Source: Candidatus Gastranaerophilales bacterium | Lineage (GTDB): Bacteria; Cyanobacteriota; Vampirovibrionia; Gastranaerophilales; Gastranaerophilaceae | NCBI GenBank assembly: GCA_944325175.1 | Contig: CALUYZ010000005.1 | Span: forward strand, 15,484 to 79,483 | Direction of reading: 5' to 3' | Length of the DNA stretch: 64,000 nt | Shown: positions 1,562 through 61,670 of the stretch, piece after piece | Layout: each line of letters begins with the position of its first letter | Position numbering within the stretch: position 1 is the first letter of the stretch | The notes under the pieces: generated by a model | What the model was told of the DNA's origin: nothing | Seen by the model: the letters and a program-made list of their open reading frames with translations, nothing else | The model's database searches: none | Translations under genes and position numbers: made by a program

Positions 1562-3289
1562 TTGAACAGAGAATTTCATAAACAATTTGAAAAAAGGGTT
1601 GGTTGTTTGCAACTTTTGTTTAACTTGTTTGTTGTTCTTCTTTTGGCATATCTTTTTTTGGTTCAGGTTTTTGATATAAGAGGCTATCGTGACAGGGCAA
1701 AAACCCAAAGAGCTTCTACCCCCTTTGTTTTAAGAGGTGAAATTGTTGACAGAAACAATGTAAAACTTGCAACTGATGATACTTCTTTTAACGTTTATGC
1801 TCATCCTCTTTATTATGATAATTCGCCGGATGAACTTGCGGAAAAATTATCTTCCCTTTTAAATATGGATAAAAAAACACTGGCTTCAAGGTTTGCAAAA
1901 GATGAGAATGTAATTCTTATTAAAAAAGGAATTTCAAGAAAAACCGCAGAAAAAATAAAAGCACTAAAATTGAGAGAAATTTCTCTTGAAGCAAAAAACA
2001 AAAGAATATATCCTCAAGGCAGTTTAGCTGCACATATTTTAGGCTATTATAATGCAGATGCAGATATGGCAGGGGGTATTGAATATGTTGCAAGTGATTA
2101 TCTTAAATATATAGATAAATCTATTAAATATGAAAAAATGCCCAATGGCGATATTATATACAATTTATCGGTGGACCCTGAAGATGTTATAAACCCCACC
2201 AAAGGTAAAACTTTAAAATTAACAATAGATTCTCCAATTCAGCATATTTGTGAAAAATATTTATATCAAATGGTTCAAAAAACAGATGCATACAGAGGTG
2301 CTGCTATTGTTATGGAACCTAAAACAGGTGAAATTTTAGCCATGGCTGAATATCCCTACTATGACCCAAACAACTACCAAAAGCACTCTTTAATTGAAAT
2401 GAAAAACTGGGCGCTTACAGATGTTTATCCCCCCGGTTCAACTTTTAAAATTATTACAATCGCATCTGCCATGTTGAATAATAAAATTAACAAAAACACA
2501 AAAATTATGGACACGGGAAAAATGAAAGTCGGCTGGTGGGAAATAACCAATTACGATTATCGTGAAAAAGGCGCCCCCGGCTTAATTGACCTTGTTTATC
2601 TGTTCCAACATTCAAGCAATATTGCAAGTGTTAAGGTTGCTCAAATGATGACGCCTGAAGAATATTATGATGCGCTTCAATTATTTGGTTTTGGGCAAAG
2701 GACAGGAATTGATCTTCCGGGTGAATCTACAGGGTTGCTTCCTAAAGCTTCAACTTGGGACATTTCAACCCATGCTTCAATGGCATACGGCTATGGTGCT
2801 TCAGTTACTGCAATACAAATGATTTCTGCCGTAAATGCTATAGCAAATGACGGTGTTTGGATAACACCTCATGTTATTAAATATTCTGATGCAGTTGCCG
2901 AGAAGAAAGTTATAAAACGCCGTATAATGACGCATGAGCAAGCGCAAGAAATAACAGAACTTCTTGTAAAATCAATCGAAGCGGGTCATTCCATGGGCAA
3001 AATGGAAGGCTACACGGTAGCTGCAAAAACAGGTACATCAAGGCGACCAAACGACAAAGGTACGGGTTATTCCAATAAGTTATACACATCTATGATTGGT
3101 TTTCTTCCTGCATCCAACCCAAAAGTAACCATTTATGTCGTAATTGACTCTCCTCAAGGTGGCGGATTATGGGGTTCGACTGTTGCAGGGCCCGTGTTTA
3201 AAGATATTGCAACAGAAATTGTAAGAATTTTGAATATTAATCCGGATAAGACACAACCCGATGAAAATAAAAGTGTAAAGATAAATTAA
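1562..3289 (+). CDS. ftsI: Penicillin-binding protein, class B transpeptidase (FtsI/PBP3-like)
   Basis: N-terminal TM anchor. Transpeptidase motifs STFK (SxxK), SSN (SxN) and KTGT (KTG). dcw-cluster position. Confidence 0.9.
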   Translation: MNREFHKQFEKRVGCLQLLFNLFVVLLLAYLFLVQVFDIRGYRDRAKTQRASTPFVLRGEIVDRNNVKLATDDTSFNVYAHPLYYDNSPDELAEKLSSLLNMDKKTLASRFAKDENVILIKKGISRKTAEKIKALKLREISLEAKNKRIYPQGSLAAHILGYYNADADMAGGIEYVASDYLKYIDKSIKYEKMPNGDIIYNLSVDPEDVINPTKGKTLKLTIDSPIQHICEKYLYQMVQKTDAYRGAAIVMEPKTGEILAMAEYPYYDPNNYQKHSLIEMKNWALTDVYPPGSTFKIITIASAMLNNKINKNTKIMDTGKMKVGWWEITNYDYREKGAPGLIDLVYLFQHSSNIASVKVAQMMTPEEYYDALQLFGFGQRTGIDLPGESTGLLPKASTWDISTHASMAYGYGASVTAIQMISAVNAIANDGVWITPHVIKYSDAVAEKKVIKRRIMTHEQAQEITELLVKSIEAGHSMGKMEGYTVAAKTGTSRRPNDKGTGYSNKLYTSMIGFLPASNPKVTIYVVIDSPQGGGLWGSTVAGPVFKDIATEIVRILNINPDKTQPDENKSVKIN

Positions 3290-3415
3290 CTCTCTTGATT
3301 TTATAATTGTTTTTGTTAAAATTTTCATGAGATAAGTTAATTTCGAGTGTAGTTCCTTACTTAGTTTCACATTTAAGATTTTAACTTTTTTTGTAGTTGG
3401 TGACATAGAATTATT

Positions 3416-6400
3416 GTGAAATACAATTTTAACAACAGTTTTATTAAAGAACAAGCTAAACCCGGCAGCTGGCGCAGGGGTTATGAATGTTTTCAAAAAA
3501 ATTTAGTTAGCGATGTTACAATTAAAGATGCCGTTATTTCAGGCAAAGTAAAAGGCAATTTTAAAGATCACTATGATGTTTCGATAAAATTTAATAAAAC
3601 ATCCGCTAAACCTTCTTGTTCTTGCCCTCTTGATGAACCTTGGTGCAAGCATGTTGTTGCTTTGGGTTTATCTGCAATTAAAGAGCATCAGGTTGATGAA
3701 TTGATGTATGAAAAATATAATATTGAGCCAACAATAGTGGATGAAAATATTCCCATGACGGAAAATCCTAAAGGCGGCTATATTTTTCACTTTAACCCCA
3801 AAAGAAGGCAAAATTTCTTTTCAATTCTTGTAATGGACAGAAACACAAAAAGAGTTATAAGAGATTTAGAAGCAATTTTTAAAGCCGTTTTGGAAATGCA
3901 AAAAAACGACCCCGATTTTAAGCTGAACGAAGTACAAAAGCTCGAAGCGATGATGTTTTCAATGCTTTTAAAACAATCAAGGCTGGATAAAAAATCAGGT
4001 TGGTATGATGTTCAAATTAATAAATTTGATGACTTCTTTAAAATGCTCTCTAAAATGGAAGATGTAATAGATGCTAAAACACATAAGAAAATTTTATTTA
4101 CATCCGATGTTTGGAATTTGTGCTTGTCCGTTAATGTTTCTTATGTCGGAAATGTTTTATTGTCTTTATATTGGAAGCGCCCTGACGGGAATGAAATTTA
4201 TCCTTTCGAAGAAATCAGATATTTTTCAAGAGGTCTAAAATGGGGCAGATATAAAGATAGAATTTTCCAAACGGATGTAATGGTTTCTGTTCTTCCGCAA
4301 AACCTTATTAAGGCTTCTTTTACAGATATTAAAGATGCCGAGGGCGGTAAATTCATTTATGAAGAACTTCCTGAATTAAGAAAAGTCATGACAGTTGAAT
4401 TGTCGGAAGAAATGGAAAAACTTTCATTTGAAAAAAGAGACCCTAAATGTGTAGTTGAACTTGGCATTGATTATGATCAATCCCTAAAAGCATCTTTGGA
4501 ATTTGAATATGACGGAGTTAGGGTTCCTTATACAAAAAATCCGAAAACGCCCTATATTACAATTAAAGACCCTGAAAAAGATTTATTATATTGGGTTAAA
4601 AGAGATTCAAATTATGAGCAAAGAGCCTATCAAATGCTTCTTGCTTGCCGTTTTGCACCAATGCAAACTAACAATTTAGCCCTTGAAAAAGAAAATGCTA
4701 TTGATTTTTACAACTATTATATAAATCAAGCAGGCTCAAATTGGGAATTTATAGAAAAAGACGATATGTCCATGTATAAATTAACAAAAAAAGAGCTTAC
4801 CTTGTGCGCTGAAATTGATTTTGCATCAGATACAACAGATAAATTTGAAATTGAAATGTACGCAGAAGCAGAAGGCGAGCGCATTGAATTTGAAAAGGTT
4901 CAAGAATTAGTCTATGACGGGCAAAGATATTATCAATCCGTTGGCAAAGGGCAGAGTTTAATACCTGTAGATAACGTATTTACACTGTTAAAATCATTTA
5001 ATACATACGATGTTTACAAAAATGATGAAGATAAATATATCGTAAAAACATACCGTGCAGGTGTAGTTTCCGAAATGGAAAATATGAAGGTTAAAATGAA
5101 AATGTCCAGAAAATTTTCTAAATTCTGGAAAGAAATTTCTACATTTTCAAATATGGAAAATACGGCATTGCCAAAATCAACCGTTGCAAATCTTCGTGAA
5201 TATCAACAAAAAGGCTACAGTTGGTTATGGTTTTTGTATAAATACGGGCTTAATGGAATTTTAGCAGATGATATGGGTCTTGGTAAAACTCTTCAAACTT
5301 TAACCTTGTTACAAAAGGCAAAAGAAAAAGACGGTAAAGAGCCAACCCTTGTAATTTGCCCGACCTCAGTTGTTTTTAACTGGGAAAATGAAATTGAAAA
5401 ATTTGCCCCCAATCTAAAATTTTTAACTCTTTCAGGGTCTGAAAGAAAAGCAAACTTTAAAAATATTCCAAAATTTGATGTCATTATTACAAGCTATGCT
5501 CTTATCAGGCGTGATATTGAACAGCTAAAAAAATATGATTTCAGATACATTATTTTAGATGAATCTCAAAATATAAAAAATGCACAAAGTCAAACTTCAA
5601 AAGCGGTTAAAACCCTAAAAGCTAAGCACAAATTGGCACTGTCAGGCACCCCTATTGAAAATAGGCTTGAAGAATTATGGAGTGTATTTGATTTTCTTAT
5701 GCCCGGTTTCTTGTTTGATTCTAATGAATTTAATAACAGATACGTATATCCAATCGTAGAAAAAGAAGATAAACAAGTGGAAAGGCGCTTAAAATCGCAA
5801 ATTTTCCCATTTATTTTAAGACGTATGAAAAGGGATGTTGCAAAAGATTTGCCTGATAAAATTGAAGCCGTTGCATATTGCGAACTTACACCCGAGCAAA
5901 AAGACTTATATTTGCAAGTTCTTGATTCTACTAAAGAAGAATTGTTTAAATCAATCGAAACAGTTGGCTTGGAAAAATCCAGAATGTCTATTTTCTCTGC
6001 CCTTCTACGTTTGCGTCAAATCTGCTGTCATCCGAGATTGTACGACAAAGAAGGCATGTTAAATATTAATGAATCAGGTAAGTTTGAGCATTTGCAATCA
6101 ATGCTTGAGGAAATCATATCTGAAGGTCATAGAATTTTATTATTCAGCCAGTTTGTAGGCATGCTTGATATAATTAAAGTGTGGCTTGAAAATAAAGGTA
6201 TTAAGCATGAATACCTATCCGGTGCCACCAAAAACAGACAAGAGGTTGTAGAAAGGTTTAATTCCGACCCTACAATTCCTATCTTCCTTGTTTCCTTGAA
6301 AGCAGGCGGAACAGGCTTGAATTTAACAGGTGCCGATTATGTAATTCACTATGACCCATGGTGGAACCCTGCCGTTGAAGATCAGGCAACAGACAGGGCT

Positions 6401-8095: not shown

Positions 8096-9262
8096 TTAAC
8101 CTAAGGTATCAAACACAACTTTTGAAACTTTTTGTATAAGTTCTCTTGCACCATAGTCGTTATGGGGGCGTTTAACCATAATAACCATAATATATTTTTT
8201 GCCGTTTGGAGAATAAATCACTCCGGCATCACCAAGCATTTTTCCAATATCGCCTGTTTTGTGCATAATTACGGCTTCAGGCGGTAATTGTGATTTAATC
8301 AATGTTCTGTTTTCAACATGGCTCATATATTCTTTTATATTTGCAGCAGATTGAATCGGAACAAATTTTTGATTGTCGATATTATACAGCATTGTTGCTA
8401 TATCGTAAGGAGTTGTAGTGTTTGTTCCTTTCAAATCAGGCAGCCAAGATGTTATTTGTGTTTTTGAAAAACCCCAGTGCCTTAATGCGGAATTTAGTTC
8501 ATTAATGCCGCCAATTTCTTCTATTAGCATATTTGTGGCAGAATTGTCCGATTTTGTAATCATTATTTTTGCCAAATAATCAATAGTGTAATCTACATTG
8601 GCACTTTTAAACTGTAAATTTCCTGAACCTTCTGTTCTGTGCGCTTCCGTAAAGGTTAATTTTTTTTCTAAGCTTATGGGACTAAAACCTTCTTTTTCAA
8701 GGTCTTTGTTGCGGTTGAAAAAATCTAAAAGAACCGGAATTTTAATTATACTTGCAGCAGGAAAAATCTTATCTTTATTTATATCTACGGTTTTTCCCGT
8801 TTTGTAATCATAGATAAAAATGCCTGCATGAAGGTTTTTGTAGTTTTCAAGAATCGGCAAAATATTATTTTTAAGCGCGGTTAATTCTCCAACAGAATTA
8901 ATTGTAAGCATTTTTTCACGCCCTTTGTTTGGAACGCCCGTTAAAATGTTTGTATTTAAAAAGCTTAAATTGTTTACATAATTAAGTGTTGGTGCATAAA
9001 TTGCCTTTGCGTCAAAATTAAGCTTTGCATTATTTATTCTGTTTAAATATACAGGCTCTAAAAAATTTGGCTTGTTTATTGAAAATGCTCCCAATAAAAT
9101 TGTTGCCCAAACCATTGCAGCTATAGCAATTCTTGCTTTTGGCGCTTTCTTTCTTGTTTGTCTGCAAGTTTGCCTGTAATTAGCGCTTTTTAAACTGTCT
9201 GTTGCGCTATAATTATATTGTAATTTTTGTTTCGGATAATTTTTGTATTGTAAATTTTGCAT
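8096..9262 (-). CDS. Class A beta-lactamase-like serine hydrolase, membrane-anchored or secreted
   Basis: SxxK (ASIIK), SDN (KSDNSATN) and KTG (HKTGDIG) motifs in the canonical order. N-terminal hydrophobic segment. Confidence 0.7.
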   Translation of the reverse strand: MQNLQYKNYPKQKLQYNYSATDSLKSANYRQTCRQTRKKAPKARIAIAAMVWATILLGAFSINKPNFLEPVYLNRINNAKLNFDAKAIYAPTLNYVNNLSFLNTNILTGVPNKGREKMLTINSVGELTALKNNILPILENYKNLHAGIFIYDYKTGKTVDINKDKIFPAASIIKIPVLLDFFNRNKDLEKEGFSPISLEKKLTFTEAHRTEGSGNLQFKSANVDYTIDYLAKIMITKSDNSATNMLIEEIGGINELNSALRHWGFSKTQITSWLPDLKGTNTTTPYDIATMLYNIDNQKFVPIQSAANIKEYMSHVENRTLIKSQLPPEAVIMHKTGDIGKMLGDAGVIYSPNGKKYIMVIMVKRPHNDYGARELIQKVSKVVFDTLG

Positions 9263-9374
9263 AAATTCAATATAACAAATTTTATAATTCAGGGCTTTAA
9301 TGTAAAAAAAATTTAATTTTTTTAAAAGATATAAAATTGTTAACTTGTATGAAAAAATATGATATACTCAACTT

Positions 9375-9728
9375 ATGAAATTTTTATATATATTTATTTT
9401 ACTGATTTTATTCTCTTTTCTTCCCGTTTATGCTAAAGATACGGTACAGACATCCGATATGCTTCTTACGGGTAAAATTTCTTCTTATGTTGACGGCCTT
9501 GTCAAAATAAACAAAAATGGCATGGAATATACCTTTACAAGGTCAAAAAATATAGATTATTTTGGCGACTTTGTGCAATATAGGGAGAATCCTTTCAAAA
9601 AAGCTTTAACTGATGCAAATTGTCGTGTTATTTATATTGACCTTTATAAAGTTGTATTTGAACTTCCGACTTCAAGAATTCAAGTTCCAAGATACAGGGT
9701 TAAAAACATTGTTTTAAATGCTGATTAG
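9375..9728 (+). CDS. Small secreted hypothetical protein
   Basis: Signal-peptide-like N-terminus MKFLYIFILLILFSFLPVYA. No recognisable motif. Confidence 0.45.
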   Translation: MKFLYIFILLILFSFLPVYAKDTVQTSDMLLTGKISSYVDGLVKINKNGMEYTFTRSKNIDYFGDFVQYRENPFKKALTDANCRVIYIDLYKVVFELPTSRIQVPRYRVKNIVLNAD

Positions 9729-9738
9729 GAGATAAAAA

Positions 9739-10611
9739 ATGAACGTAGTTATTTATTCAGATAACAATACCGATGAACTCAAAAATATTTTAGAAGATAT
9801 TAATGATATTAATTTAAGGTTTGAGCCTTCAGACAGCTTGCCTCATTATAAAGACATTAATGCATCAGTTATTATTTTAGATATGCCTCTTGATAAAATT
9901 AAAGAAAAGGCTGCTGTTACAAAATTTGATGCAGGTGTTTTAATTTTGACGGATGAAATTCCTGAAATGACTGTTAGAGCGATTGTTCATGATTTTATCA
10001 AACGTCCGATTAATCCTATTGAGCTTAAAGTTAGAACTGAAGCTTTAATGAAGGCTGTTCATTACAAACATTCTTTAAGCAAAGTTTCAATAACAGATGA
10101 ACTTACAGGTCTTTACAACAGAAAATATCTCCATGCCAGATTAGACGCAGAAATTTCTCGTGCAAAAAGATATGGTACCGACCTTTCTTGCCTTTTGATA
10201 GATATTGACTTCTTTAAAACCGTTAATGATATGTATGGCTATGATTGGGGCGATGTTTTATTGAAAAAAGTTGCCGAAATGCTCAGCGCATTAATAAGAA
10301 AAGAAGATATTTTAACAAGATACGGTGATGAAGAATTTCTTTTAATTCTTCCAAACACATCCGAACAACAAGCTTTCATTTTTGCAGAACGTTTTAGACG
10401 TGATATTGAAAAAATGGAATTTATTCCGGCACAAGAAGAAGAACGTCATCCGATTACCATTTCAGGCGGCATTTCAAGCTATCCTTTCTTGGAAAATGTT
10501 GAAGAAAATTCAAATTCTCTGATAAGATACGCTGAACATGCTCTCTACAATGCAAAACAAAGCGGTAAAAATCAAATTGTTCAGTTTTCAAGAATTAATT
10601 TAGGATTCTAA
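9739..10611 (+). CDS. Receiver-like domain fused to a GGDEF-family domain (degenerate GDEEF site, RxxD I-site present)
   Basis: GGDEF-domain hallmarks (DELTGLYNRKY, DIDFFKTVND). The active-site position reads RYGDEEF instead of GG(D/E)EF. RKED lies five residues upstream. Confidence 0.8.
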   Translation: MNVVIYSDNNTDELKNILEDINDINLRFEPSDSLPHYKDINASVIILDMPLDKIKEKAAVTKFDAGVLILTDEIPEMTVRAIVHDFIKRPINPIELKVRTEALMKAVHYKHSLSKVSITDELTGLYNRKYLHARLDAEISRAKRYGTDLSCLLIDIDFFKTVNDMYGYDWGDVLLKKVAEMLSALIRKEDILTRYGDEEFLLILPNTSEQQAFIFAERFRRDIEKMEFIPAQEEERHPITISGGISSYPFLENVEENSNSLIRYAEHALYNAKQSGKNQIVQFSRINLGF

Positions 10612-12370: not shown

Positions 12371-12420
12371 ATATACGAAATACATAATTTCTATATATTG
12401 TTACATTACTTTACATTTTG
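12371..12420. promoter_or_regulatory. Conserved non-coding block, copy A (matches 60493-60540)
   Basis: Manual ungapped alignment gives about 40 of 48 identical positions, including TATATACGAA and TGTTACATT. Lies 70-120 nt from the start of the 11447-12301 gene. Confidence 0.5.
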
Positions 12421-12641
12421 TTTTTATACCTTTTTTATCCTTACTGCACTATTTTGATACTTTTGTCGTTTTCTTGGTATTGTTAACGACAAAATTTAAA
12501 AAAAACTTTAATCTGATGTTTTTTAGCTTAATATTTTGTAACATCTCTATAATTAATTAAGTCTGATTTACCTAATTCACATAATTGCATGAACTGTTTT
12601 ATTTGAATTATAATAATACTGATATTTTTTATGAGGTGTTT

Positions 12642-13829
12642 ATGTCATCAAAGAAACGTAACATAATTACAATTTTATGTATTTTAGGACTTATTTTAAG
12701 TATAGATTTAGTTTATATATATATAAAAACAAGCTTTTTATCAGGCGCCCCGAAAAGTTTTTGTTCAATTAACAGTTTTATAGACTGTGACGGTGTAGCG
12801 CAGACTGATAAAGCCTTCTTTCTCGGTATTCCTCTTGCCATTTGGGGTGTTATTTTATATATGCTTTTTCTCTTTTTAAATTATGTTGATAAAATTAGAG
12901 AAAAAATTAATTTCCCTTTATTAAATGTTTTTAAAAACCCAAGTTCATATATTGCAAGTATTGGATTATTTTCTTTTTGCATTTCTGTTTCTCTTGCTTG
13001 CGTTTCCCTTTTTAATATTCACAAAATTTGTATTCTTTGTTTTATGACATATTTTATAAATTTCTTTATAGCACTTGTAGCTGTTAAAAAAGACTTTTTT
13101 GTTTCAGATGTCAAAAATACTGTTTTTGATTTTATTCAAGGGGTTAAAGAGTATACCACACTGTTTTTAGTTGTGCTTCTTTTTGGTGTATTGACGCTTG
13201 GATATTTTCAACAGTCTTTAATATTGGCACCTATTGTTAAAGCTAATAAATCCTTAAAAGAATTTAGTGAGCTAAAAAGCAATATTTATGCAACTTCAGG
13301 AAACACTTTAGGTAACCCCGAGGGTGATGTTTCCATATTTGTTTACGGAGATTTTATGTGTCCTTTCTGTAAGGTCATGAATATCATGCTTCATAAACTT
13401 GTTATTGATGATAAAAATGTAGCTGTGTATCATGTTAATTTTCCTCTTGATTCAGCTTGCAACCCTACTGTTAAAGTTCAGGTGCATCCCGGTTCTTGCA
13501 TTTTATCTAAATATGCATTGGCTGCTCAAAATCAAGGAAATTATTGGGGCATGGTTTCAGGTATATATAACACATTGCCTAACAATGAGAAAGAAATTAT
13601 TCAAATTGGTAAATCAATCGGTTTAGATACCAAAAAACTATACAACGATGCTCATTCTAAACAAATTGACGAATATCTTGAAAATCAAGTTTACAGAGGT
13701 ATTAATGAAAAATTAGTCGGAACGCCTACTATTATTATTGACGGTATTCCTCATTCTGAAGTTATGCCTTATTTTAAAATTCAAGAGCTTGTTAAACAAT
13801 CAAGAGAACGTCATGCCAAACAAAAATAA
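12642..13829 (+). CDS. VKOR (vitamin K epoxide reductase-like) membrane domain fused to a DsbA/thioredoxin-like domain
   Basis: VKOR loop cysteines CSINSFIDC and the CILC active site lie within a multi-TM N-half. The C-half has thioredoxin-fold CPFC. Start moved to the ATG preceded by GAGGTG; the ORF extends to 12585. Confidence 0.8.
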   Translation: MSSKKRNIITILCILGLILSIDLVYIYIKTSFLSGAPKSFCSINSFIDCDGVAQTDKAFFLGIPLAIWGVILYMLFLFLNYVDKIREKINFPLLNVFKNPSSYIASIGLFSFCISVSLACVSLFNIHKICILCFMTYFINFFIALVAVKKDFFVSDVKNTVFDFIQGVKEYTTLFLVVLLFGVLTLGYFQQSLILAPIVKANKSLKEFSELKSNIYATSGNTLGNPEGDVSIFVYGDFMCPFCKVMNIMLHKLVIDDKNVAVYHVNFPLDSACNPTVKVQVHPGSCILSKYALAAQNQGNYWGMVSGIYNTLPNNEKEIIQIGKSIGLDTKKLYNDAHSKQIDEYLENQVYRGINEKLVGTPTIIIDGIPHSEVMPYFKIQELVKQSRERHAKQK

Positions 13830-14577: not shown

Positions 14578-17127
14578 TTATTTATACTCTACAAATTTTT
14601 CATTCTGAAAAATATAAGGGGTTATTTTATCTTCTTTAATTTTAAACTTAATTGCGCCCGTTTCTTTTGTGTTAAGAACTTTAGAATAATTTCTATAAAG
14701 GTCTACGGTTTCTTTGTTTGGATGATTATAAGGATTTTTTCCCGTTAAAATTACCGTATATTTTGGCTTTAATCTATTGAGCATTTTTCTGTCTGCCGTT
14801 CGTTTTGCACCATGGTGAGATGCTTTTAGAATGTCTATATTTTTGGGCATAAACTTTTCGATTGAATGAAAACTTTTGGTCGGCACATCTGCAAGAAATA
14901 AAAATTTTAAATTTCCGTATTTTACAAAAGTCACAGTCGATGAATCATTTTTTGACAGTTTGTTTTCAGATTTTGGAACATAATTTACAATTTCAACATC
15001 TTTGTATGAAAATTTCTGTTTTGTATATGGAATTATGTAGTTAACTTTATTTTTCTCTATGTAATTTTTAATATTGCAAGAATTTTTGGAATTACATTCA
15101 AGTTTTGGTATAACAAGCTTGTTAACTTTTATTTCTTCCAATAAATTAATTAAACCGCCCGAGTGGTCTGCATCGTAGTGGGTTACGATTAAAAGTTCTA
15201 TTTCTTTTATATTTTTGTCGTAAAGATATTCCAATGTTATTCTTTTTGCACTCGAAGAATCAGGATAGATAAACCTTCCCGTATCAATCATTATGTATTT
15301 ATTGTCTTTTGTTTTAATTAAACAATTATCTGCATTGCCTGAATCGAAGAATATAATTTCACCATTATTGCAGTCAAATTTTGCAAGCGAAAATGTAAAT
15401 ATTATAAAAACTATTATTAATAATTGATTCAAATATTTATTTTTAAACAAATGTTTTATTGAAACAAAAAGAACGGTTATAAAAAGATAATAAAAAATTA
15501 TTTGTACAATATCGGGTGACGGAACTTTTATTATTGAATTATTTAGTGAAGAAAAATAATTTGAAATATTTAAAATTATCTGAATCATAAAATTTAAAAT
15601 AATGTCAAAAATCGGTATTATATAATCTGAAACAATCGGTATAAAACAAAAGGCGGAAGATATAAACCCTAAAAAGCTTACTATTCCTATAAATGGCACC
15701 ACTGCTATGTTTGCTAAAATTGAATATATTGAAAAAGTGTTAAAATAATACGCCTGCAATGGCGATGCCCAAATTTGCGCAACAAAAGGCACCATTATAA
15801 TACAAGTAACAGAAATTGGCGAAAACATCATAAGAAAATATTTAACAATTTTATTATAAGGTTTTATCTTTTTGATATATTTTCTTTCTTTTTCTTCAAG
15901 ATTTTTAGTTAAGCTCGGAATACATATTAATAAACCAAGTGTTACAAGAAATGAAAGCTGAAATGCTACATCATTTATAAATTCCGGTTTAAAAATTAAA
16001 ATAAGCAAGCCTGCCATAAATATTAAAGAAATGCCGTTTGCTTCTCTGTAGATAAATTTACCGATTAAAATAAGAATAAGCATAACGGATGCTCTTACAA
16101 TAGAGGGTGGAAAACCTGTCATCATCATATATAGCATAACAATAAAAAGACCTGATAAAATCTTTAATCTGTAGTGAATATTTATAAAATGCACTACATA
16201 AAGCCACATAGAAAGAATTAATGCCACGTTTAAACCCGAAGCTGCAAGTAAATGCAGCAAACCTGAATTTATAAAAGATTCCCTTACTTCATCCGGCGGG
16301 TTTATTGCGTCATCTCCAAAAACAATTCCGCCCAAAATTTCTAAATTAGGCGAGCGAACGTATTTGCCATGGGTTTGTATGATTTTATCCCTTAAATCGT
16401 TCATATTTCTTGTAAAGCACAAGTTGAAATAATTTAATTTGTTTATAAAGCCTTCTTTTCTTCTAAGTTCTTTTATGTTGGGAGATTGAATTAAACTGTA
16501 TTCTTTTGCATAAAAAGTTTTTAAAATTCCCTTGTTGTTTAAGAATTTTTGATAATTAAATTGCGAGGGGTTTGTTGCTTTTGTTGGTGTTGTTAATATG
16601 CCGTTTGCTTTTATTTTGTCCCCGTATTTTGGAATATAGTTATCTTTATTAACTTTTATTGTTGCAAGAATTTTTGTTTTCTCAATTTTGTATGTTTTAC
16701 CTTGTATATCAATTTTTTCCACATCAAGAGGAAACTTGCAGCTTTTATTCTTTTCTTTGCAAGTTGGAATATTTGCAACCGTGCCGTTTATTTCCGTATT
16801 CTTAACAGTTTCTATTCCGTAAAAATCGTCATAAACCGTATAATTTGACTTTGCGCAAAGAAATCCGAAACAAAATAAGAAGTATATAAAAACAATAAAA
16901 GTGGAAGAAATGTATCTCTTGTTCTCTTTTAAAAATAATTGAAAAATTAAAATTAAAAGAATTAAAGCCGTAAATATATTAGCTATAATTAATTTTTCAC
17001 CCGAATAAAAAGCAATTAAACCCATTGTGTAAGATGTAAATAAGACAATACAAATTAAGGGCTTATTTTCTTTTAGGTTAAGTAAAAAATCTTTCAGCAT
17101 AAAATATTTATCCCATATCAATGCCAC
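14578..17127 (-). CDS. comEC: DNA internalisation competence protein ComEC/Rec2 with C-terminal metallo-beta-lactamase domain
   Basis: Polytopic membrane core with the LLAASGLNVALI competence-domain motif. C-terminal MBL motif HYDADHSGG and SHHG. Confidence 0.88.
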   Translation of the reverse strand: MALIWDKYFMLKDFLLNLKENKPLICIVLFTSYTMGLIAFYSGEKLIIANIFTALILLILIFQLFLKENKRYISSTFIVFIYFLFCFGFLCAKSNYTVYDDFYGIETVKNTEINGTVANIPTCKEKNKSCKFPLDVEKIDIQGKTYKIEKTKILATIKVNKDNYIPKYGDKIKANGILTTPTKATNPSQFNYQKFLNNKGILKTFYAKEYSLIQSPNIKELRRKEGFINKLNYFNLCFTRNMNDLRDKIIQTHGKYVRSPNLEILGGIVFGDDAINPPDEVRESFINSGLLHLLAASGLNVALILSMWLYVVHFINIHYRLKILSGLFIVMLYMMMTGFPPSIVRASVMLILILIGKFIYREANGISLIFMAGLLILIFKPEFINDVAFQLSFLVTLGLLICIPSLTKNLEEKERKYIKKIKPYNKIVKYFLMMFSPISVTCIIMVPFVAQIWASPLQAYYFNTFSIYSILANIAVVPFIGIVSFLGFISSAFCFIPIVSDYIIPIFDIILNFMIQIILNISNYFSSLNNSIIKVPSPDIVQIIFYYLFITVLFVSIKHLFKNKYLNQLLIIVFIIFTFSLAKFDCNNGEIIFFDSGNADNCLIKTKDNKYIMIDTGRFIYPDSSSAKRITLEYLYDKNIKEIELLIVTHYDADHSGGLINLLEEIKVNKLVIPKLECNSKNSCNIKNYIEKNKVNYIIPYTKQKFSYKDVEIVNYVPKSENKLSKNDSSTVTFVKYGNLKFLFLADVPTKSFHSIEKFMPKNIDILKASHHGAKRTADRKMLNRLKPKYTVILTGKNPYNHPNKETVDLYRNYSKVLNTKETGAIKFKIKEDKITPYIFQNEKFVEYK

Positions 17128-17170
17128 TTTTGATAAGGTTTGTTAATTTTTGTTAACTTATTTTTTTTAA

Positions 17171-17244
17171 AAAAGTCAATTTTATATAAAGTATATACTT
17201 TATATATGTAACGAGAGATAATTTTTTACCAGAGGAGAGTAAAA
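17171..17244 (+). promoter_or_regulatory. Conserved promoter/leader block, copy 1 (matches 60551-60645)
   Basis: AAAAG(T/G)CAATTTTA..AAAGTATAT..TTTATATA..TGTA(A)CGAGAGAT shared with the region upstream of ORF 60646. About 42 identical positions over ~50 nt with three short gaps, then a TTACnAnAGnAGAG-like leader. Confidence 0.6.
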
Positions 17245-18729
17245 ATGACACATGTAAGTACTATTAAAACAAATACCCAAACAATGACGCCTGAAGCTTT
17301 GCAAGAAGCTATAAGAAACGGCAGCATTGATTCAACCAAAATAACAGATGTTTCAGTATTTTCACAATCAGCCGATACTTCACAATGTTCTGACGGCAAA
17401 GATGACGGTAAAATCGGCTTCTTTGATGCACTCGGAAGCACTTTAAAAGGTGCTGTGGATGGCGTTGTAAACGGTATCAAAGGTTGCTTTTTTGATGAAA
17501 ACGGTAACTTTAGCTTAGGTAACACTTTAAAAACAGCTTTAACCGTTGGCGCATGCTTTATCCCCGGTGTTGGTCCTGTTATTGCAACCGGTTTATGTGC
17601 CTATGGTGCAGTCAAAGGCGGTGTTGGAATTGCTAAAGGTGTTGCAGCTGCTGCAAGTGCCGAAACAGACGCTGAAGCAAAAGCAGCATTTGAATCAATC
17701 GGTGCAAACGGTGTTGCTACAGCTGCATCAGCAGTTGGTCTTAAAGCCTCTGCAAGTGCGTTGGCATCAAATGTAACAGGCAGCGCTACAGGCAGCACTC
17801 TTAAAAACTTAGGTTCTGTTAAAAATGCAGTAACAAAATCATTTAAAACAGGAAACGGCATTACGGATAAATTAGCAAATGCAGCTGATACACTGACAGG
17901 CGGCTACTATGGCTCAGCTTGGAATAGTGCAACAGGCTCTACAGTTCAAAAATTAGGTCAAGTTGCTCAATCTTCTCTAAAAGATACAGGCGCAAATATC
18001 TATAAAGCTTATGATGTAACTAAAAATACAATAAAAGATAAAACAGCTAAAATTACCAAAAAGAAAACTGATTCAAATCTTACTTCAGAAACGGTAATTA
18101 CTGATAGCTCAGCTAATGCAAAAACGACTACAAAAACAAAAAATGTTTCAGATTTACCTGAAGATATTCAACAATCAATTAAAGACGGAAACTCAACCGG
18201 TCATATAGACAATAATACGACTTACAAAACTGTTGGTGACGGCAAAGTTGAAGTTACAACAACAACTCCCGGAAAAGTAAAAACAACTTATAATACAGAA
18301 TTACTTAAAGACCAATCTAAAGCAGTTCAAAAAGAAGTTGGCAAACTTTCAGCCGGTCAATCAACAAACATTAAGGGTAAAACATATACAAACTTAGGTG
18401 ACGGATATGTTGAAATTACAACTTCAAAAAATCTTGGTCTTGCCGGCGAAACGCTTTATAATCTTGAAAACGCTGCAACGGTAAATGGTTATCAAGGTTT
18501 AACTTCAAATGGCGGAAATGTTAAAGCTGCTGTTGGTGCATTATCTTCAAACGCTCTTAATAATTCTGCGGATGAAATTGAAAATCAAATTCCTTATGCA
18601 TCTCAAACATTTGCGACGGTTGATATTCAATCAGGTTATGAATATGACTTACAAGATTACACAATAATGGATGAAGATCAAGTTAACGAAAGCTATTCTC
18701 AAATTATGGCAAATGCATACGGGCTGTAA
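17245..18729 (+). CDS. Gly/Ala/Thr/Ser-rich hypothetical protein with a glycine-zipper-like hydrophobic segment
   Basis: GGAGAG RBS and a long open frame. Residues ~95-135 (ALTVGACFIPGVGPVIATGLCAYGAVKGGVGIAKG) are small-residue rich. Internal duplicated TYKTVGDGKVEVTTT / TYTNLGDGYVEITTS. No family recognised. Confidence 0.65.
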   Translation: MTHVSTIKTNTQTMTPEALQEAIRNGSIDSTKITDVSVFSQSADTSQCSDGKDDGKIGFFDALGSTLKGAVDGVVNGIKGCFFDENGNFSLGNTLKTALTVGACFIPGVGPVIATGLCAYGAVKGGVGIAKGVAAAASAETDAEAKAAFESIGANGVATAASAVGLKASASALASNVTGSATGSTLKNLGSVKNAVTKSFKTGNGITDKLANAADTLTGGYYGSAWNSATGSTVQKLGQVAQSSLKDTGANIYKAYDVTKNTIKDKTAKITKKKTDSNLTSETVITDSSANAKTTTKTKNVSDLPEDIQQSIKDGNSTGHIDNNTTYKTVGDGKVEVTTTTPGKVKTTYNTELLKDQSKAVQKEVGKLSAGQSTNIKGKTYTNLGDGYVEITTSKNLGLAGETLYNLENAATVNGYQGLTSNGGNVKAAVGALSSNALNNSADEIENQIPYASQTFATVDIQSGYEYDLQDYTIMDEDQVNESYSQIMANAYGL

Positions 18730-58933: not shown

Positions 58934-59803
58934 ATGAACGCTTTAATTGAAACATACAATATAAAAAATAGTAACGAAAAGCTGCAAAAGCCTAATTTTG
59001 ACACTAAAATAGGCAGAGAATTTTTGGCATTTTATCTTCAGACAAAATTTAAGCAAATACTAAATTTTGACAAGAAAAATGAGGAACATCTATTTTTAGA
59101 AGTTCGTGACGATTTTATTCCAAACTTTCTTAACCGTTTGGTAAATTACCCCAATATGAAGATTTTAATTGGAATTACCGGCGAATCAGCCTCAGGCAAA
59201 TCTTCAATATGCAATGAAATTCAAAAAATAATCGACAAATTTAATATGCCAATCACCATAATAAATGCCGATAATTATTTTAGAGATATTTCCGATTTAA
59301 TAAAAAAATATGGCACTTTTGATAATTTAAGAGATAACGGGCATGATGTTGATGCGCCTGAAAATTTTAGGCTGGATTTACTTAAAGAGCATGCCTACGA
59401 CTTAAAAAACGGCAAAAATATCATGGCGCCAAAATATTTAACAAACGGCACAGGTGTTTCTGTATTAAATGCAAATGAAGTTAAAACAAACAAAATTGTT
59501 GTAATTGAAGGCATGGCAACAATGTTTGAACCCGTAAGAAGCCTGTTTGACATAAAAATTTATGTAGAAACAACCAGAAAAACAAGAAGAAAAAGATTCT
59601 TAGACAGAGCCGAAGAAAGAAATCAAGACAGAGAAAATGCTCTAAAGCACTGGGACTACGTTGAAAAAGCCGGCGCTAAATACATAAAACCTGCAAAAAG
59701 TTTCTCAGATATTGTTGTTAACGGCGAATGTAGCTTAGAATATTTTACGCAAATTATAGAATTTATAAACCACATTACAAATTGCTTTAGAGAGGCTGAA
59801 TAA
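58934..59803 (+). CDS. Uridine kinase/phosphoribulokinase-family P-loop kinase
   Basis: Walker A GITGESASGKSS. PRK/Udk-like downstream region. Confidence 0.6.
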   Translation: MNALIETYNIKNSNEKLQKPNFDTKIGREFLAFYLQTKFKQILNFDKKNEEHLFLEVRDDFIPNFLNRLVNYPNMKILIGITGESASGKSSICNEIQKIIDKFNMPITIINADNYFRDISDLIKKYGTFDNLRDNGHDVDAPENFRLDLLKEHAYDLKNGKNIMAPKYLTNGTGVSVLNANEVKTNKIVVIEGMATMFEPVRSLFDIKIYVETTRKTRRKRFLDRAEERNQDRENALKHWDYVEKAGAKYIKPAKSFSDIVVNGECSLEYFTQIIEFINHITNCFREAE

Positions 59804-60317
59804 GTTTTTCTTTTAGAAAATCAATTAAGGGCAAAATATTTTCTTTTAATTCCTCATAATTGCCATTATTATTTAATATATAATCAAAGCCACTGTAGCT
59901 ATCAAGCTCTGTTTCGGTTAAATCGTTTGTATTTGTAATTGTTCCGCGTTTATTTCTTGTTTCATAACTTGCTTCAACCCTTATTAAAATTGCACCTGCG
60001 TTTTTAAAAACTTCAGCTTCGTGCAACAATCTGACATCAGGAACAATAACATTTTTATCTTGTTCAATAATCTTATTAAGCCAAAAATCAGGATGGATAT
60101 TTCTGCCTTCATTGCCAAGCTCAATAAGCCCCGTTCTATACTTGCCTTTATTGTTTTCTATTTCCAAAAAAGTTAAATTATTTCTTTTTCCATATTCAAG
60201 CTTTATTGCATCTGCAATACCGATTCTTATAAATTGCGGAAAAGCATCTAATATAAGCTTTGCAGCCGTGTCTTTACCTGAATATTGTTTTCCTGAGAAG
60301 CAAATTATATTTTTCAT
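59787..60317 (-). CDS. dNMP kinase-like P-loop protein (phage T4 gp1 / phosphomevalonate-kinase-like family)
   Basis: FSGKQYSGKDT P-loop, IVPDVRLLHEAE and LNNNGNYEEL segments parallel the T4 dNMP kinase layout, recalled from memory and not searched. Confidence 0.55.
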   Translation of the reverse strand: MKNIICFSGKQYSGKDTAAKLILDAFPQFIRIGIADAIKLEYGKRNNLTFLEIENNKGKYRTGLIELGNEGRNIHPDFWLNKIIEQDKNVIVPDVRLLHEAEVFKNAGAILIRVEASYETRNKRGTITNTNDLTETELDSYSGFDYILNNNGNYEELKENILPLIDFLKEKLIQPL

Positions 60318-60351
60318 ATACAAATTATATCAAAATATATACATAAAGAAA

Positions 60352-60375
60352 AATCGCAATTAATAAATTGCGATT
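60352..60375 (-). terminator. Hairpin with U-run on the minus strand
   Basis: aatcgcaat-taataa-attgcgatt. On the minus strand it is followed by TTTTCTTT. Confidence 0.5.
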
Positions 60376-60492: not shown

Positions 60493-60540
60493 ATATATAC
60501 GAATTTCATATTTTATATATACTGTTACATTTCTTAATAT
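60493..60540. promoter_or_regulatory. Conserved non-coding block, copy B (matches 12371-12420)
   Basis: See 12371-12420. Lies 105-155 nt upstream of ORF 60646. Confidence 0.5.
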
Positions 60541-60550
60541 TAAGAAATTA

Positions 60551-60645
60551 AAAAGGCAATTTTAAAAAGTATATTTTTTTTATATACATGTACGAGAGAT
60601 CAAAAGTTACAAAAGAGAGACTAAACAGAAATGGAGTAAAGACCA
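60551..60645 (+). promoter_or_regulatory. Conserved promoter/leader block, copy 2 (matches 17171-17244)
   Basis: See 17171-17244. Confidence 0.6.
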
Positions 60646-61134
60646 ATGGGCTGGGTAACACTGTCACTCAGAAAAATGGTTTTGACTCAAAGAGTATCAC
60701 AATTAGAAAACAGATTACTTCATTTGAGTCAAGAACAACAATCATTAGCAAATAGTTCTTCATACACAGAAAGAGCTATAGGTCTTGAAAAACAAGAAGC
60801 TTATTCTTCTCTTATGAACAATTACTCTGGCAACCTGAACAATATATCAGACTTTGTATCAAGCGGAAACGCAAGCGACCCTGCAAGCTTAATTCAATAT
60901 CAAGCAGAACTGCAACAACAACAGCTTGATTACATGTACAACAAAATGATAATTGATTCAGTGTTTACACAAAAAGAACAATCACTACAAGATGAAATAA
61001 ACAACAAACAAACTTACTTATCACTGGAACAAGAACAAGTAGAAACCCAATTAGAAGCAGCAAGAGCTGAACTTGAACAAATGGATGAAGCATGTTCACA
61101 AGATATTCAATCAAGTACAATTAGCTTAGTATAA
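60646..61134 (+). CDS. Uncharacterised coiled-coil protein, short family member 1
   Basis: MGWVTLSLRKMVLTQRVSQLENRL... and ...LEQEQVETQLEAARAELEQMDEACSQDIQSSTISLV. Paralog of 61185 and 11447. GGAG RBS. Confidence 0.7.
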   Translation: MGWVTLSLRKMVLTQRVSQLENRLLHLSQEQQSLANSSSYTERAIGLEKQEAYSSLMNNYSGNLNNISDFVSSGNASDPASLIQYQAELQQQQLDYMYNKMIIDSVFTQKEQSLQDEINNKQTYLSLEQEQVETQLEAARAELEQMDEACSQDIQSSTISLV

Positions 61135-61184: not shown

Positions 61185-61670
61185 ATGGGCTGGGCAGCAT
61201 TATCATTAAGAAAGATGACGCTCAAACAAAGAATCAACAACTTGGAACAAAGGCTTGTAAATATAAGCCAAGAACTCCAATCAATGTACGATTCGTCATC
61301 TTACGCACAACAAGCATTGGGCGTTGAAAAATCAAACGCACTTGCAAACTTACAACAAACATATTCAAACAATACATCAACATTAGCCGGTACATACCAA
61401 GGCGCAACAGATACATCTGCATTAAATGAATACAACACGGCATTGCAACAAGAACAACTTTCTTTAATGTATAATCAAATGATTCAAAACTCATTATTTA
61501 CAGCAAAAGAATCAGCAATGCAAGATTCAATCAACCAAGCAGAAACTCAATTACAATTAGAACAAGAACAAGTTGAAACACAATTAGAAGCAGCAAGAGC
61601 TGAATATGATTCACTCGATCAAGCTTGCTCACAAGATATTCAATCAGGCGCTATAAGCTTGGTATCATAA
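61185..61670 (+). CDS. Uncharacterised coiled-coil protein, short family member 2
   Basis: MGWAALSLRKMTLKQRINNLEQRL... and ...LEQEQVETQLEAARAEYDSLDQACSQDIQSGAISLVS. AAGGAG RBS. Tandem with 60646. Confidence 0.7.
   Translation: MGWAALSLRKMTLKQRINNLEQRLVNISQELQSMYDSSSYAQQALGVEKSNALANLQQTYSNNTSTLAGTYQGATDTSALNEYNTALQQEQLSLMYNQMIQNSLFTAKESAMQDSINQAETQLQLEQEQVETQLEAARAEYDSLDQACSQDIQSGAISLVS

Follow-up and report, generated by a model that had tools for sequence, protein, structure and literature searches.

A rigid two-box signature upstream of orphan genes as the probable core of a specialised promoter class in Gastranaerophilales

In the 64,000-nt stretch of contig CALUYZ010000005.1 from a Candidatus Gastranaerophilales bacterium that we analysed (positions 15,484 to 79,483 of the contig; hereafter the window), a gene for a 494-residue protein and a tandem pair of genes for coiled-coil proteins are each preceded by a near-identical block of ~50 nt. 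We find that this block follows a signature of ~37 nt in which an A-tract with a G(G/T)CAATT box and a box containing TATATA are held at a rigid distance, that recurs in front of start codons in Gastranaerophilales, that differs from the housekeeping promoters of the lineage and that precedes mostly lineage-specific gene families. The two window blocks are two copies of this signature of Gastranaerophilales promoters and not a private pair, and we hold with high confidence that they represent the core of a specialised class of promoters in this lineage (Vampirovibrionia/Melainabacteria). The best reading of the motif, from sequence, is co-regulation by a dedicated factor. In this case, the motif would mark a large and undescribed co-regulated gene set, mostly of non-membrane families, and not a private link between two genes.

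Results

Shared block and lineage consensus

By direct reading and in a MAFFT alignment, positions 17170-17219 and 60550-60600 of the window share, in the same order, the strings AAAAAG(T/G)CAATTTTA, AAAGTATAT, TTTATATA, TGTA and (A)CGAGAGAT, followed by TTAC..AGAG, and lead to start codons at 17245 and 60646, respectively. When the region 17170-17244 was locally aligned with the rest of the window in 150-nt tiles, the top non-self match was the 60550 region with a score of 53, while the best scores that 20 shuffled queries reached anywhere in the window were 26-40, and the combined pattern of shared strings is expected 0 times by chance in the window. Taken singly, the short strings (AAAAAGKCAATTTTA, ACGAGAGAT, mismatches allowed) occur at chance frequency in the window and are uninformative. 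An earlier note on this DNA had described two near-identical blocks as being beyond chance, and the alignment score and the combined pattern bear this out; its block is real but its left edge was off by one base, the blocks beginning at 17170 and 60550, and it overlooked a tandem TTACA-type repeat further upstream at both sites (Table 1). Of the 25 informative positions in the lineage consensus described below, all are matched at 17170 and all but 3 at 60550. The rest of the 64-kb window contains no further site with ≤6 mismatches to this consensus; shuffles give 0-3 sites at 6 mismatches.

To describe the signature across genomes, we used two pattern scans. Scan 1 compared AAAAAGKCAATT-N17-TTTATWWA with a species-representative genome collection and yielded at least 120 rows. 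Among these listed matches, ~105 are metagenome-assembled genomes (MAGs) of Gastranaerophilales, Melainabacteria or 'Vampirovibrio', or contigs with the same gene families under other labels, and about a dozen (Flavobacterium, Chamaesiphon, Halomicronema and others) resemble chance matches. The consensus of 100 scan-1 matches reads AAAAAG(G78/T22)CAATT-TTT-n8-A(92%)-a-A-T-A-C(91%)-TTTATATA-t-A-y-r-T-A-A-G-a-g-a. The A at position 23 (92%) and the C at position 28 (91%) are conserved even though the pattern left them free, as are the T/A/T/A around these two positions and the TAAG behind the box. Scan 2, GGCAATT-N{9,17}-ATACTTTATATA against metagenome contigs, had a different anchor and allowed nine gap lengths; the gap is exactly 13 in 118 of the 123 scan-2 matches listed. 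The same spacing was found in 10 of 12 secondary sites in the flanks of scan-1 matches, which lie outside the pattern selection. The distance from GKCAAT to the TATATA hexamer is exactly 20 nt, the stretch between the boxes being free in sequence and fixed in length. This rigidity over free sequence argues for one protein assembly that touches both boxes. The matches of both scans lie mostly in front of gene starts (see below) and do not behave as a dispersed repeat independent of genes, the outcome by which the earlier note would have considered its reading refuted.

Divergent back-to-back copies of the motif on opposite strands, ~60-190 nt apart, are present in two of the collected contigs, which we designate by L numbers (L074, ~2003-2100; L043, ~2845-3070). 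As a separate observation, perfect motif copies together with Gastranaerophilales families (e.g. the coiled-coil and a 67-residue family) occur in nine contigs (L048, L051, L055, L068, L087, L088, L090, L100 and L128) labelled as Brachyspira, Gammaproteobacteria, Eubacteriales, Methanobacteriaceae, Bacteroidaceae, Muribaculaceae, Anaerovoracaceae or Acutalibacteraceae; these contigs are probably mis-binned or mislabelled.

Gene starts, leaders and orthologous loci

In 89 of 96 cases, the motif is followed at a distance of 15-60 nt (median 32 nt) by a Shine-Dalgarno (SD)-like sequence and the start codon of an open reading frame (ORF) of at least 40 residues; in the metagenome set the start codon is placed in this manner at 76 of 87 sites. 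The orientation of the motif relative to the downstream gene is fixed. Together with the retention of the motif at orthologous loci, this supports the promoter-type signal that had been proposed for the two window sites. The leader between motif and start codon is composed of 46% A, 23% G and 5.7% C (C is 15.5% in the window), and the purine-rich leader noted earlier after both blocks is real and general across sites. Leaders come in two flavours, with GAGAGA repeats or AGGTTA repeats, and the second GAGAGA-type repeat in the coiled-coil leader is kept in orthologues. The leader begins with CGAG in 27 of 214 sites; because both window sites belong to this minority, the window copies look more alike than the class consensus requires. 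The shared string CGAGAGAT, which the earlier note had considered as part of the promoter, is most likely located at the transcription start or immediately behind it. Leaders are no more stably folded than their shuffled counterparts (z-scores +0.1 to +1.4; +0.36 for the 17212 leader and +1.37 for the 60592 leader), and at the gathering threshold Rfam matched tRNA-Leu alone in the whole window and no riboswitch or structured cis-regulatory RNA.

In other species, the 494-residue locus has the gene order comEC, 494-residue gene, two orphan genes, pth and a LysM gene, and the coiled-coil locus has the order rpmH-rnpA, kinases, coiled-coil gene(s), a glcD-like gene and MatE. In a comparison of orthologous promoters, another check put forward in the earlier note, the boxes are kept at these syntenic loci for both families. 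Specifically, the upstream regions all keep [A-tract]G(G/T)CAAT and, exactly 20 nt on, TAT(A/T)(T/A)A, while the intervening 20 nt and the flanks drift. In L014, the 494-residue family gene is tandemly duplicated (2516-3901 and 4001-5611, encoding 461 and 536 residues), and a complete promoter, with the reverse TTACA-type repeat described below, stands before each paralogue. Separately, we observed a gene for an extracytoplasmic function (ECF)-type sigma factor with a putative anti-sigma gene downstream of it in L003 (7814-8486) and L012 (7823-8489), ~3 kb downstream of the coiled-coil pair and past the glcD-like gene and MatE, but not in L008; its equivalent in the window is expected just past the 64000 end.

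Comparison with housekeeping and other promoter consensuses

Because the housekeeping promoters of the lineage, represented by rpmH in four species and by the tRNA-Leu gene of the window, are canonical TTGACA-N17-TATnAT promoters, the motif stands as a promoter class apart. A consensus scan found no sigma-70-type match at 17050-17300, and the match at 60548 (9/12) is merely at chance level. The hexamers of the motif (TATATA, TATTTA or TATTAA) fit TATAAT in the first four positions, and the last position is A in the orthologues; as the scan-1 pattern fixed this terminal A, the orthologue set alone is unbiased there. The 5' extension of the hexamer, ATAC, has a C where extended -10 promoters have TG. 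The consensuses used for comparison were TAAA-N15-GCCGATAA for sigma-28/FliA, TGGCAC-N5-TTGCW for sigma-54 and AAC..-N16-17-CGT for ECF sigma factors, and by inspection none of these is present at the required spacing in the logo of 100 sites. The likeness to promoters of sigma-H, sigma-K/E and SigF, to the ComX cin-box, and to MerR-type long spacers, ComK AT-boxes, T7-type and T4-late promoters is superficial at most, with misfitting spacing, and we draw no claim from it. A search near the motif sites with an approximate RpaD region-2 segment and the ECF sigma factor of the coiled-coil locus as probes detected three sigma-70-family genes and the ECF gene, none of which lies behind a motif; with no sigma gene behind the motif, there is no clue to autoregulation. 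In the searchable literature on promoters, sigma factors or culture of Gastranaerophilales/Melainabacteria, we found no description of this motif.

A tandem repeat upstream of the motif

Upstream of the A-tract, the coiled-coil loci have GTTACAAAAGTTAATATT-like direct repeats and the 494-residue loci have their reverse complement. These repeats resemble HLR1, the consensus of which, (G/T)TTACA(T/A)(T/A)-N2-(G/T)TTACA(T/A)(T/A), consists of imperfect 8-nt direct repeats (PMC6525291). The reverse repeat recurs in the same orientation in the orthologous 494-residue loci L002, L014 (twice) and L016, and the forward element is kept in L003, L004 and L008; in L012, the repeat TTTACATAAGTTTACAAA is a perfect HLR1 match. 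We determined the offset of matches to the HLR1 pattern (≤3 mismatches) from the motif start at 222 unique motif sites. Forward copies peak at offset -26 (50 of the 222 sites; a further 31 lie at ±1) and reverse copies at offset -31 (34 of the 222 sites; a further 30 lie at -30 and -29), and the counts at other offsets are 0-3, with echoes 10 nt further upstream. Column-permuted half-site controls gave a median peak of ~5, and the few high ones among them are register shifts of the same repeat. The half-site of the lineage itself is TT(T/A)ACA with a 10-nt period, and the logo of 100 sites displays weak phasing upstream of the motif. Overall, roughly half or more of the sites have the tandem repeat in either orientation, with centres at ~-60 (forward) and ~-65 (reverse) counting from a start placed 7 nt past TATATA. 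It is the positional enrichment across sites, and this alone, that suggests a functional role for the repeat, and we regard it as a candidate site for a response regulator of the OmpR family. We also considered that it might be the -35 element of a divergent comEC promoter; this was ruled out, as the repeat persists between the L014 tandem paralogues and in the non-divergent L017. Gastranaerophilales genomes have been reported to retain rpaA and rpaB (PMC5877343). A search of the ~1.8 Mb of collected DNA with an approximate RpaB sequence as probe gave no full-length orthologue and is uninformative.

Elsewhere in the window, a perfect match to the cyanobacterial HLR1, GTTACATTACTTTACATT, is located at 12400-12417 (region 12390-12427, + strand; 0 expected in shuffles). 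It is flanked by more TTACA-type repeats at a 10-nt phase, is intergenic and lies upstream of a VKOR/DsbA-like gene (start ~12585-12642) without a GKCAATT/TATATA core, and could represent a response-regulator site that acts by itself.

Genes behind the motif

The 211 downstream genes of all collected motif sites fall into 82 BLAST clusters, 50 of which are singletons. The recurrent families are, in order, a family of ~80 residues (17 genes), a 67-residue family starting with MKEQELN… (16), the coiled-coil family (14, including the window gene), a family of ~96 residues starting with MLF… (13) and, in fifth place, the 494-residue family (7, including the window gene); several low-complexity families rich in N/Q/M/F/G also recur. 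Of 96 products scanned, ~80% have no Pfam match, and the matches obtained are to RHH (3), EF-hand (3), SLT/GH108/lysozyme/glucosaminidase (~5), annexin (2) and TPS (1). None of the 96 is a ribosomal or metabolic gene product, and PHROGs and NCBIfam returned lysin, RHH and EF-hand only, with no overall indication of a prophage module. When a crude hydropathy threshold was applied, a hydrophobic N-terminus is present in 0 of these 96 products versus 21 of 47 other ORFs of the window, and a transmembrane-like segment in 5 of 96 versus 24 of 47; the residues Q, M, A and T are enriched in the motif products.

The two products encoded behind the window sites fall into separate BLAST clusters and have no detectable homology, consistent with their description in the earlier note as unrelated. 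The functional link between them that the note had drawn from the shared block does not survive as such: the same signature precedes at least 82 families as well as phage genes, and the link reduces to shared membership in a regulon. We identified 115 homologues of the 494-residue protein and 72 of the 162/161-residue proteins, all from MAGs, and in both families the named homologues are from 'Candidatus Gastranaerophilales' or 'Avigastranaerophilus' only. The AlphaFold2 model of the 494-residue protein has a pLDDT of 55 and no fold match. In the 162-residue protein, conservation is high in the N- and C-terminal helices, and the sequence varies in the middle, at a turn; the protein is predicted to form a single long helical hairpin (AlphaFold2, pLDDT 84), for which Foldseek found nothing below E = 0.2 and generic antiparallel coiled coils only. 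The 50-nt gap between the two coiled-coil genes contains an SD sequence only, and because no motif stands in front of the gene for the 161-residue paralogue, this gene is probably co-transcribed with that for the 162-residue protein. The features of both loci are summarized in Table 1.

Table 1 Features of the two motif sites in the window and of the genes behind them
Feature	Position	Strand	Remarks
Upstream tandem repeat TTTGTTAATTTTTGTTAA, reverse of TT(T/A)ACA-N4-TT(T/A)ACA, 10-nt period	17139-17156	+	2 mismatches to reverse HLR1
Upstream box AAAAAGTCAATT (A-tract and GKCAATT)	17170-17181	+	Exact consensus match, kept in orthologues
Downstream box A-ATAC-TTTATATA, -10-like TATATA with conserved 5' extension	17193-17206	+	Matches all consensus positions 23-36
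Putative transcription start (~17212-17214) and unstructured purine-rich leader	17212-17244	+	Usual 7-8 nt after the -10 hexamer
CGAGAGAT	17212-17219	+	In the leader before the 17245 gene
SD-like GAGGAGAG	17232-17239	+	In the leader before the 17245 gene
494-residue protein, Gly/Ala-rich hydrophobic region, Gastranaerophilales-only family	17245-18729	+	No Pfam/NCBIfam match
Upstream tandem repeat GTTACATTTCTTAATATT, forward TTACA-type direct repeat	60524-60541	+	2 mismatches to HLR1
Upstream box AAAAAGGCAATT	60550-60561	+	Invariant in five species; consensus match
Downstream box A-TTTT-TTTATATA	60573-60586	+	Lacks the ATAC extension, hence 3 mismatches; box spacing as in all other copies
Putative transcription start (~60592-60594) and purine-rich leader	60592-60645	+	Start placed by its distance from the -10
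ACGAGAGAT	60592-60600	+	In the leader before the 60646 gene
AAGAGAGA	60613-60620	+	In the leader before the 60646 gene
SD GGAG	60633-60636	+	In the leader before the 60646 gene
162-residue coiled-coil protein, first of a tandem paralogue pair	60646-61134	+	No Pfam/NCBIfam match
161-residue paralogue, 55% identical to the 162-residue protein	61185-61670	+	No motif in front; no Pfam/NCBIfam match

The contig belongs to an assembly of the chicken-gut type and has a GC content of ~32%. The rest of the window is ordinary chromosome with mraW, a penicillin-binding protein gene, rhamnose synthesis genes, pilin-like genes, comEC and pth. The motif for N-terminal methylation found in type IV pilins/pseudopilins (PF07963) is present in three ORFs of the window, and Lcl_C domains are present in two; none has the specialised promoter. 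A weak match to T3SS_needle_F (E = 0.006, below the cut-off) among the products and their neighbours was dismissed. An inverted repeat of 10 bp without mismatch, AATCGCAATT…AATTGCGATT, which is bordered by T-runs and resembles a bidirectional terminator, lies at 60352-60375 between a divergent kinase-like gene (59787-60323, - strand) and the coiled-coil promoter, a place where convergent transcription is unexpected.

Motif copies in phages

The scan-1 pattern has about a dozen consensus-quality matches in IMG/VR. In eight viral contigs (L141, L142, L143, L146, L151, L158, L160 and L161), a perfect 25/25 motif precedes a gene for a protein of ~96 residues starting with MLF(T/V)T…; in L142, this gene (5665-5952, - strand) lies inside a podovirus-like structural module with an SU10-type portal and adaptor. 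The family is also present in the MAG contigs L032, L105, L110 and L123, which therefore probably contain prophages or are co-binned phages. The 71-kb contig L162 (IMGVR_UViG_3300049857_000028) contains four tandem variant copies, …GGCAATT-N-AAAACCGAATGTTTTTATTTA-AGTATAAG, at 8630-10489, each of which precedes a small ORF (60, 56, 75 and 325 residues). The arrangement resembles an early region in which the phage relies on the specialised promoter class of its host. Because phage contigs carry the motif, the factor that recognizes it would be available to infecting or resident phages.

Discussion

We propose that RNA polymerase would read both boxes at their rigid spacing, either by means of a dedicated alternative sigma factor or by means of the primary sigma factor together with an activator on the GKCAATT box that replaces the -35 element; to us, these two possibilities are roughly equal. 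A response regulator of the OmpR family bound to the upstream tandem repeat would assist; given the reported retention of rpaA and rpaB in Gastranaerophilales genomes, the first candidate for this role is an RpaB-like regulator. In the suggested anatomy, the tandem TT(T/A)ACA-N4-TT(T/A)ACA would lie near -60/-65, followed by the A-tract and G(G/T)CAATT at ~-43 to -32, a free gap of 13 nt, the extended -10-like box ATAC-TTTATATA, and a start region TA(A/C)GAGAGA, with the start itself ~7 nt after TATATA. Behind it would come a short, C-poor leader that lacks structure and contains SD-like units, GAGAGA or AGGTTA, in repeated form. Such a promoter would drive several dozen genes per genome, mostly for lineage-specific coiled-coil or low-complexity proteins and also for some cell-wall hydrolases and a small RHH regulator, with the 494-residue gene and the coiled-coil pair as recurrent members. 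Of the co-regulation by a dedicated factor that had been claimed for the two window loci, the kind of control is supported, the class being unlike housekeeping promoters, but a special tie between the two loci is not.

The alternative that deserves most attention is that the same class is read by the housekeeping sigma factor and that there is no alternative sigma factor, TATATA being an ordinary -10 and the AAAAAGKCAATT box acting, in place of the -35 hexamer, as the site of a dedicated class-II-type activator or as an unusually sequence-specific UP-like element. TATATA shares the T-A-T-A start of the -10 of the lineage (TATnAT), the box is placed where an activator replacing the -35 would sit, no sigma gene is linked to the motif, and the motif occurs four times in what appears to be an early region of a phage, early phage genes usually depending on the vegetative polymerase of the host. 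By contrast, the last position of the -10 is A instead of the housekeeping T (although the scan-1 pattern itself demanded A), the box is asymmetric, unlike most sites of dimeric activators, and 14 contiguous nucleotides, A-ATAC-TTTATATA (C 91%), at a near-invariant spacing are more typical of stringent alternative-sigma promoters. We therefore regard this alternative as possible but somewhat doubtful. That the block is instead a strong constitutive promoter and leader in front of very highly expressed structural genes, with no dedicated regulator, would agree with the short, unstructured and SD-rich leaders, with the copying of the motif by phages and with its extreme conservation across species. 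However, the genes expected to be expressed at the highest level (rpmH, tRNA) use a different, canonical promoter, 0 of 96 downstream products is ribosomal or metabolic, and a position-fixed repeat of the response-regulator type at many sites implies regulation, which makes a purely constitutive element distinctly unlikely.

Explanations outside promoter function fare worse. An element acting at the RNA level (a structure in the 5' untranslated region, a riboswitch or a platform for an RNA-binding regulator) would account for the whole block only with great difficulty: the GAGAGA/AGGTTA repeats of the leader could bind a protein or act as ribosome standby sites, but Rfam gave one tRNA only, the leader folds have the z-scores of +0.1 to +1.4 given above, and any plausible start would leave the greater part of the conserved block untranscribed, on its upstream side. 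We thus consider this explanation very improbable, while allowing for an RNA-binding factor on the leader repeats as an extra layer of control. Even less weight, and next to none, is given to the idea of a repeat or miniature mobile element that is dispersed without relation to gene starts. Its one attraction is the many near-identical copies per lineage, but it falls because the motif is fixed 15-60 nt before start codons. In addition, the motif copies are without the independence from gene starts, terminal inverted repeats and variable insertion of a dispersed repeat or miniature inverted-repeat transposable element; only ~37-45 nt are conserved, orientation is fixed, the sequence between the boxes is free, and syntenic copies precede orthologous genes in different species.

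Several points weigh against a specialised class with its own factor and against the RpaB-like candidate. The start site, activity, co-expression and identity of the factor are all deduced from sequence. As TATATA is compatible with the primary sigma factor, a dedicated sigma factor is not required, and none of ~240 motif sites has a sigma-70-family gene directly downstream. The early-looking use of the motif in a phage mildly favours a factor that is present in growing cells and weakens the case for a 'developmental sigma'. The size of the regulon per genome is extrapolated from 2 sites in 64 kb and ~12 extra sites in ~0.87 Mb of flanks. In the window, HLR1 matches with ≤2 mismatches occur at chance frequency, the DNA being AT-rich and the repeat low in information, and the half-site TTWACA resembles other boxes of the OmpR family equally well, so that RpaB would be a lead only.

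Going beyond our preferred reading, the regulon may represent RpaB-type control in a non-photosynthetic sister lineage, combined with an unrecognised sigma or activator specificity, GKCAATT-N13-ATACTTTATATA, that switches on orphan proteins of coiled-coil or low-complexity type without signal peptides, together with wall hydrolases; taken as a whole, we think this combination unlikely, though not far-fetched. The motif-driven orphan proteins and hydrolases could form an apparatus for the cell surface, secretion or host interaction. If RpaB were involved, the regulon would offer a view of an ancestral, pre-photosynthetic role of RpaB and a sequence tag that lists the parts of an undescribed machine in the cells of a gut lineage that is uncultured.

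The Gastranaerophilales are common inhabitants of gut and rumen; most of their lineage-specific genes have no assigned function, and we know of no cultured representative. The 37-nt signature turns several dozen hypothetical proteins per genome into one defined and testable regulon, can be traced in existing metatranscriptomes and can serve as bait for finding the regulator or sigma factor involved. In addition, it draws attention to the families that recur most often (67 residues, ~80 residues, the 162-residue coiled-coil and 494 residues) as subjects for work on structure and localisation, and it is a marker for mis-binned or mislabelled Gastranaerophilales contigs and for phages that probably infect the lineage. 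The RpaB/HLR1-like site provides a handle on the regulatory wiring of cyanobacteria versus their non-photosynthetic relatives.

With regard to known systems, the upstream repeat is closest to the RpaB/HLR1 promoters of cyanobacteria, e.g. those of photosystem I genes, with which it has in common a pair of direct repeats, a 10-nt period, a TTACA core and the use of either orientation. Cyanobacterial RpaB sites activate when centred at -66 to -45 from the transcription start and repress at -38 to +23 (PMC6525291), and the repeats at the motif sites would be centred within the activating range, at ~-60/-65 from the putative start. Moreover, the host lineage and the cyanobacteria are sister classes, and rpaB has been reported to be retained in the former (PMC5877343). 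In contrast to HLR1 promoters, the half-site is TT(T/A)ACA instead of (G/T)TTACA(T/A)(T/A), the repeat is merely accessory in the motif sites, and the regulon is unrelated to photosynthesis. To our knowledge, the AAAAAGKCAATT-N13-ATACTTTATATA core has no counterpart in HLR1 promoters. In Pho-box promoters, which are bound by PhoB/PhoP of the OmpR family, tandem direct repeats stand in for the -35 element. The motif sites resemble them in having tandem TT(A/T)ACA-like hexamer repeats and a weak or absent -35, but the period is 10 nt as opposed to 11, and the repeat lies upstream of another box instead of abutting the -10.

Sigma-70 promoters with an UP element or an extended -10 share with the motif the TATATA hexamer, an A-tract near -40 and upstream A/T phasing. 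Unlike them, the motif has no TTGACA at 17±1 nt, has a C in place of TG and keeps G(G/T)C base-specifically inside the 'UP-like' region. Finally, examples of stringent regulons under alternative sigma factors are the class 3 flagellar promoters of sigma-28/FliA (TAAA-N15-GCCGATAA) and the 'hrp box' of HrpL (GGAACC-N16-CCACNNA) in front of type III effector genes. The boxes of our motif differ from every consensus of this kind that is known to us, and the GKCAAT-TATATA distance of 20 nt is beyond the usual -35/-10 spacers. Nevertheless, the motif resembles these regulons in being bipartite, in its rigid spacing and its conservation across species, in its association with dispersed and unrelated genes and in being usable for regulon discovery.

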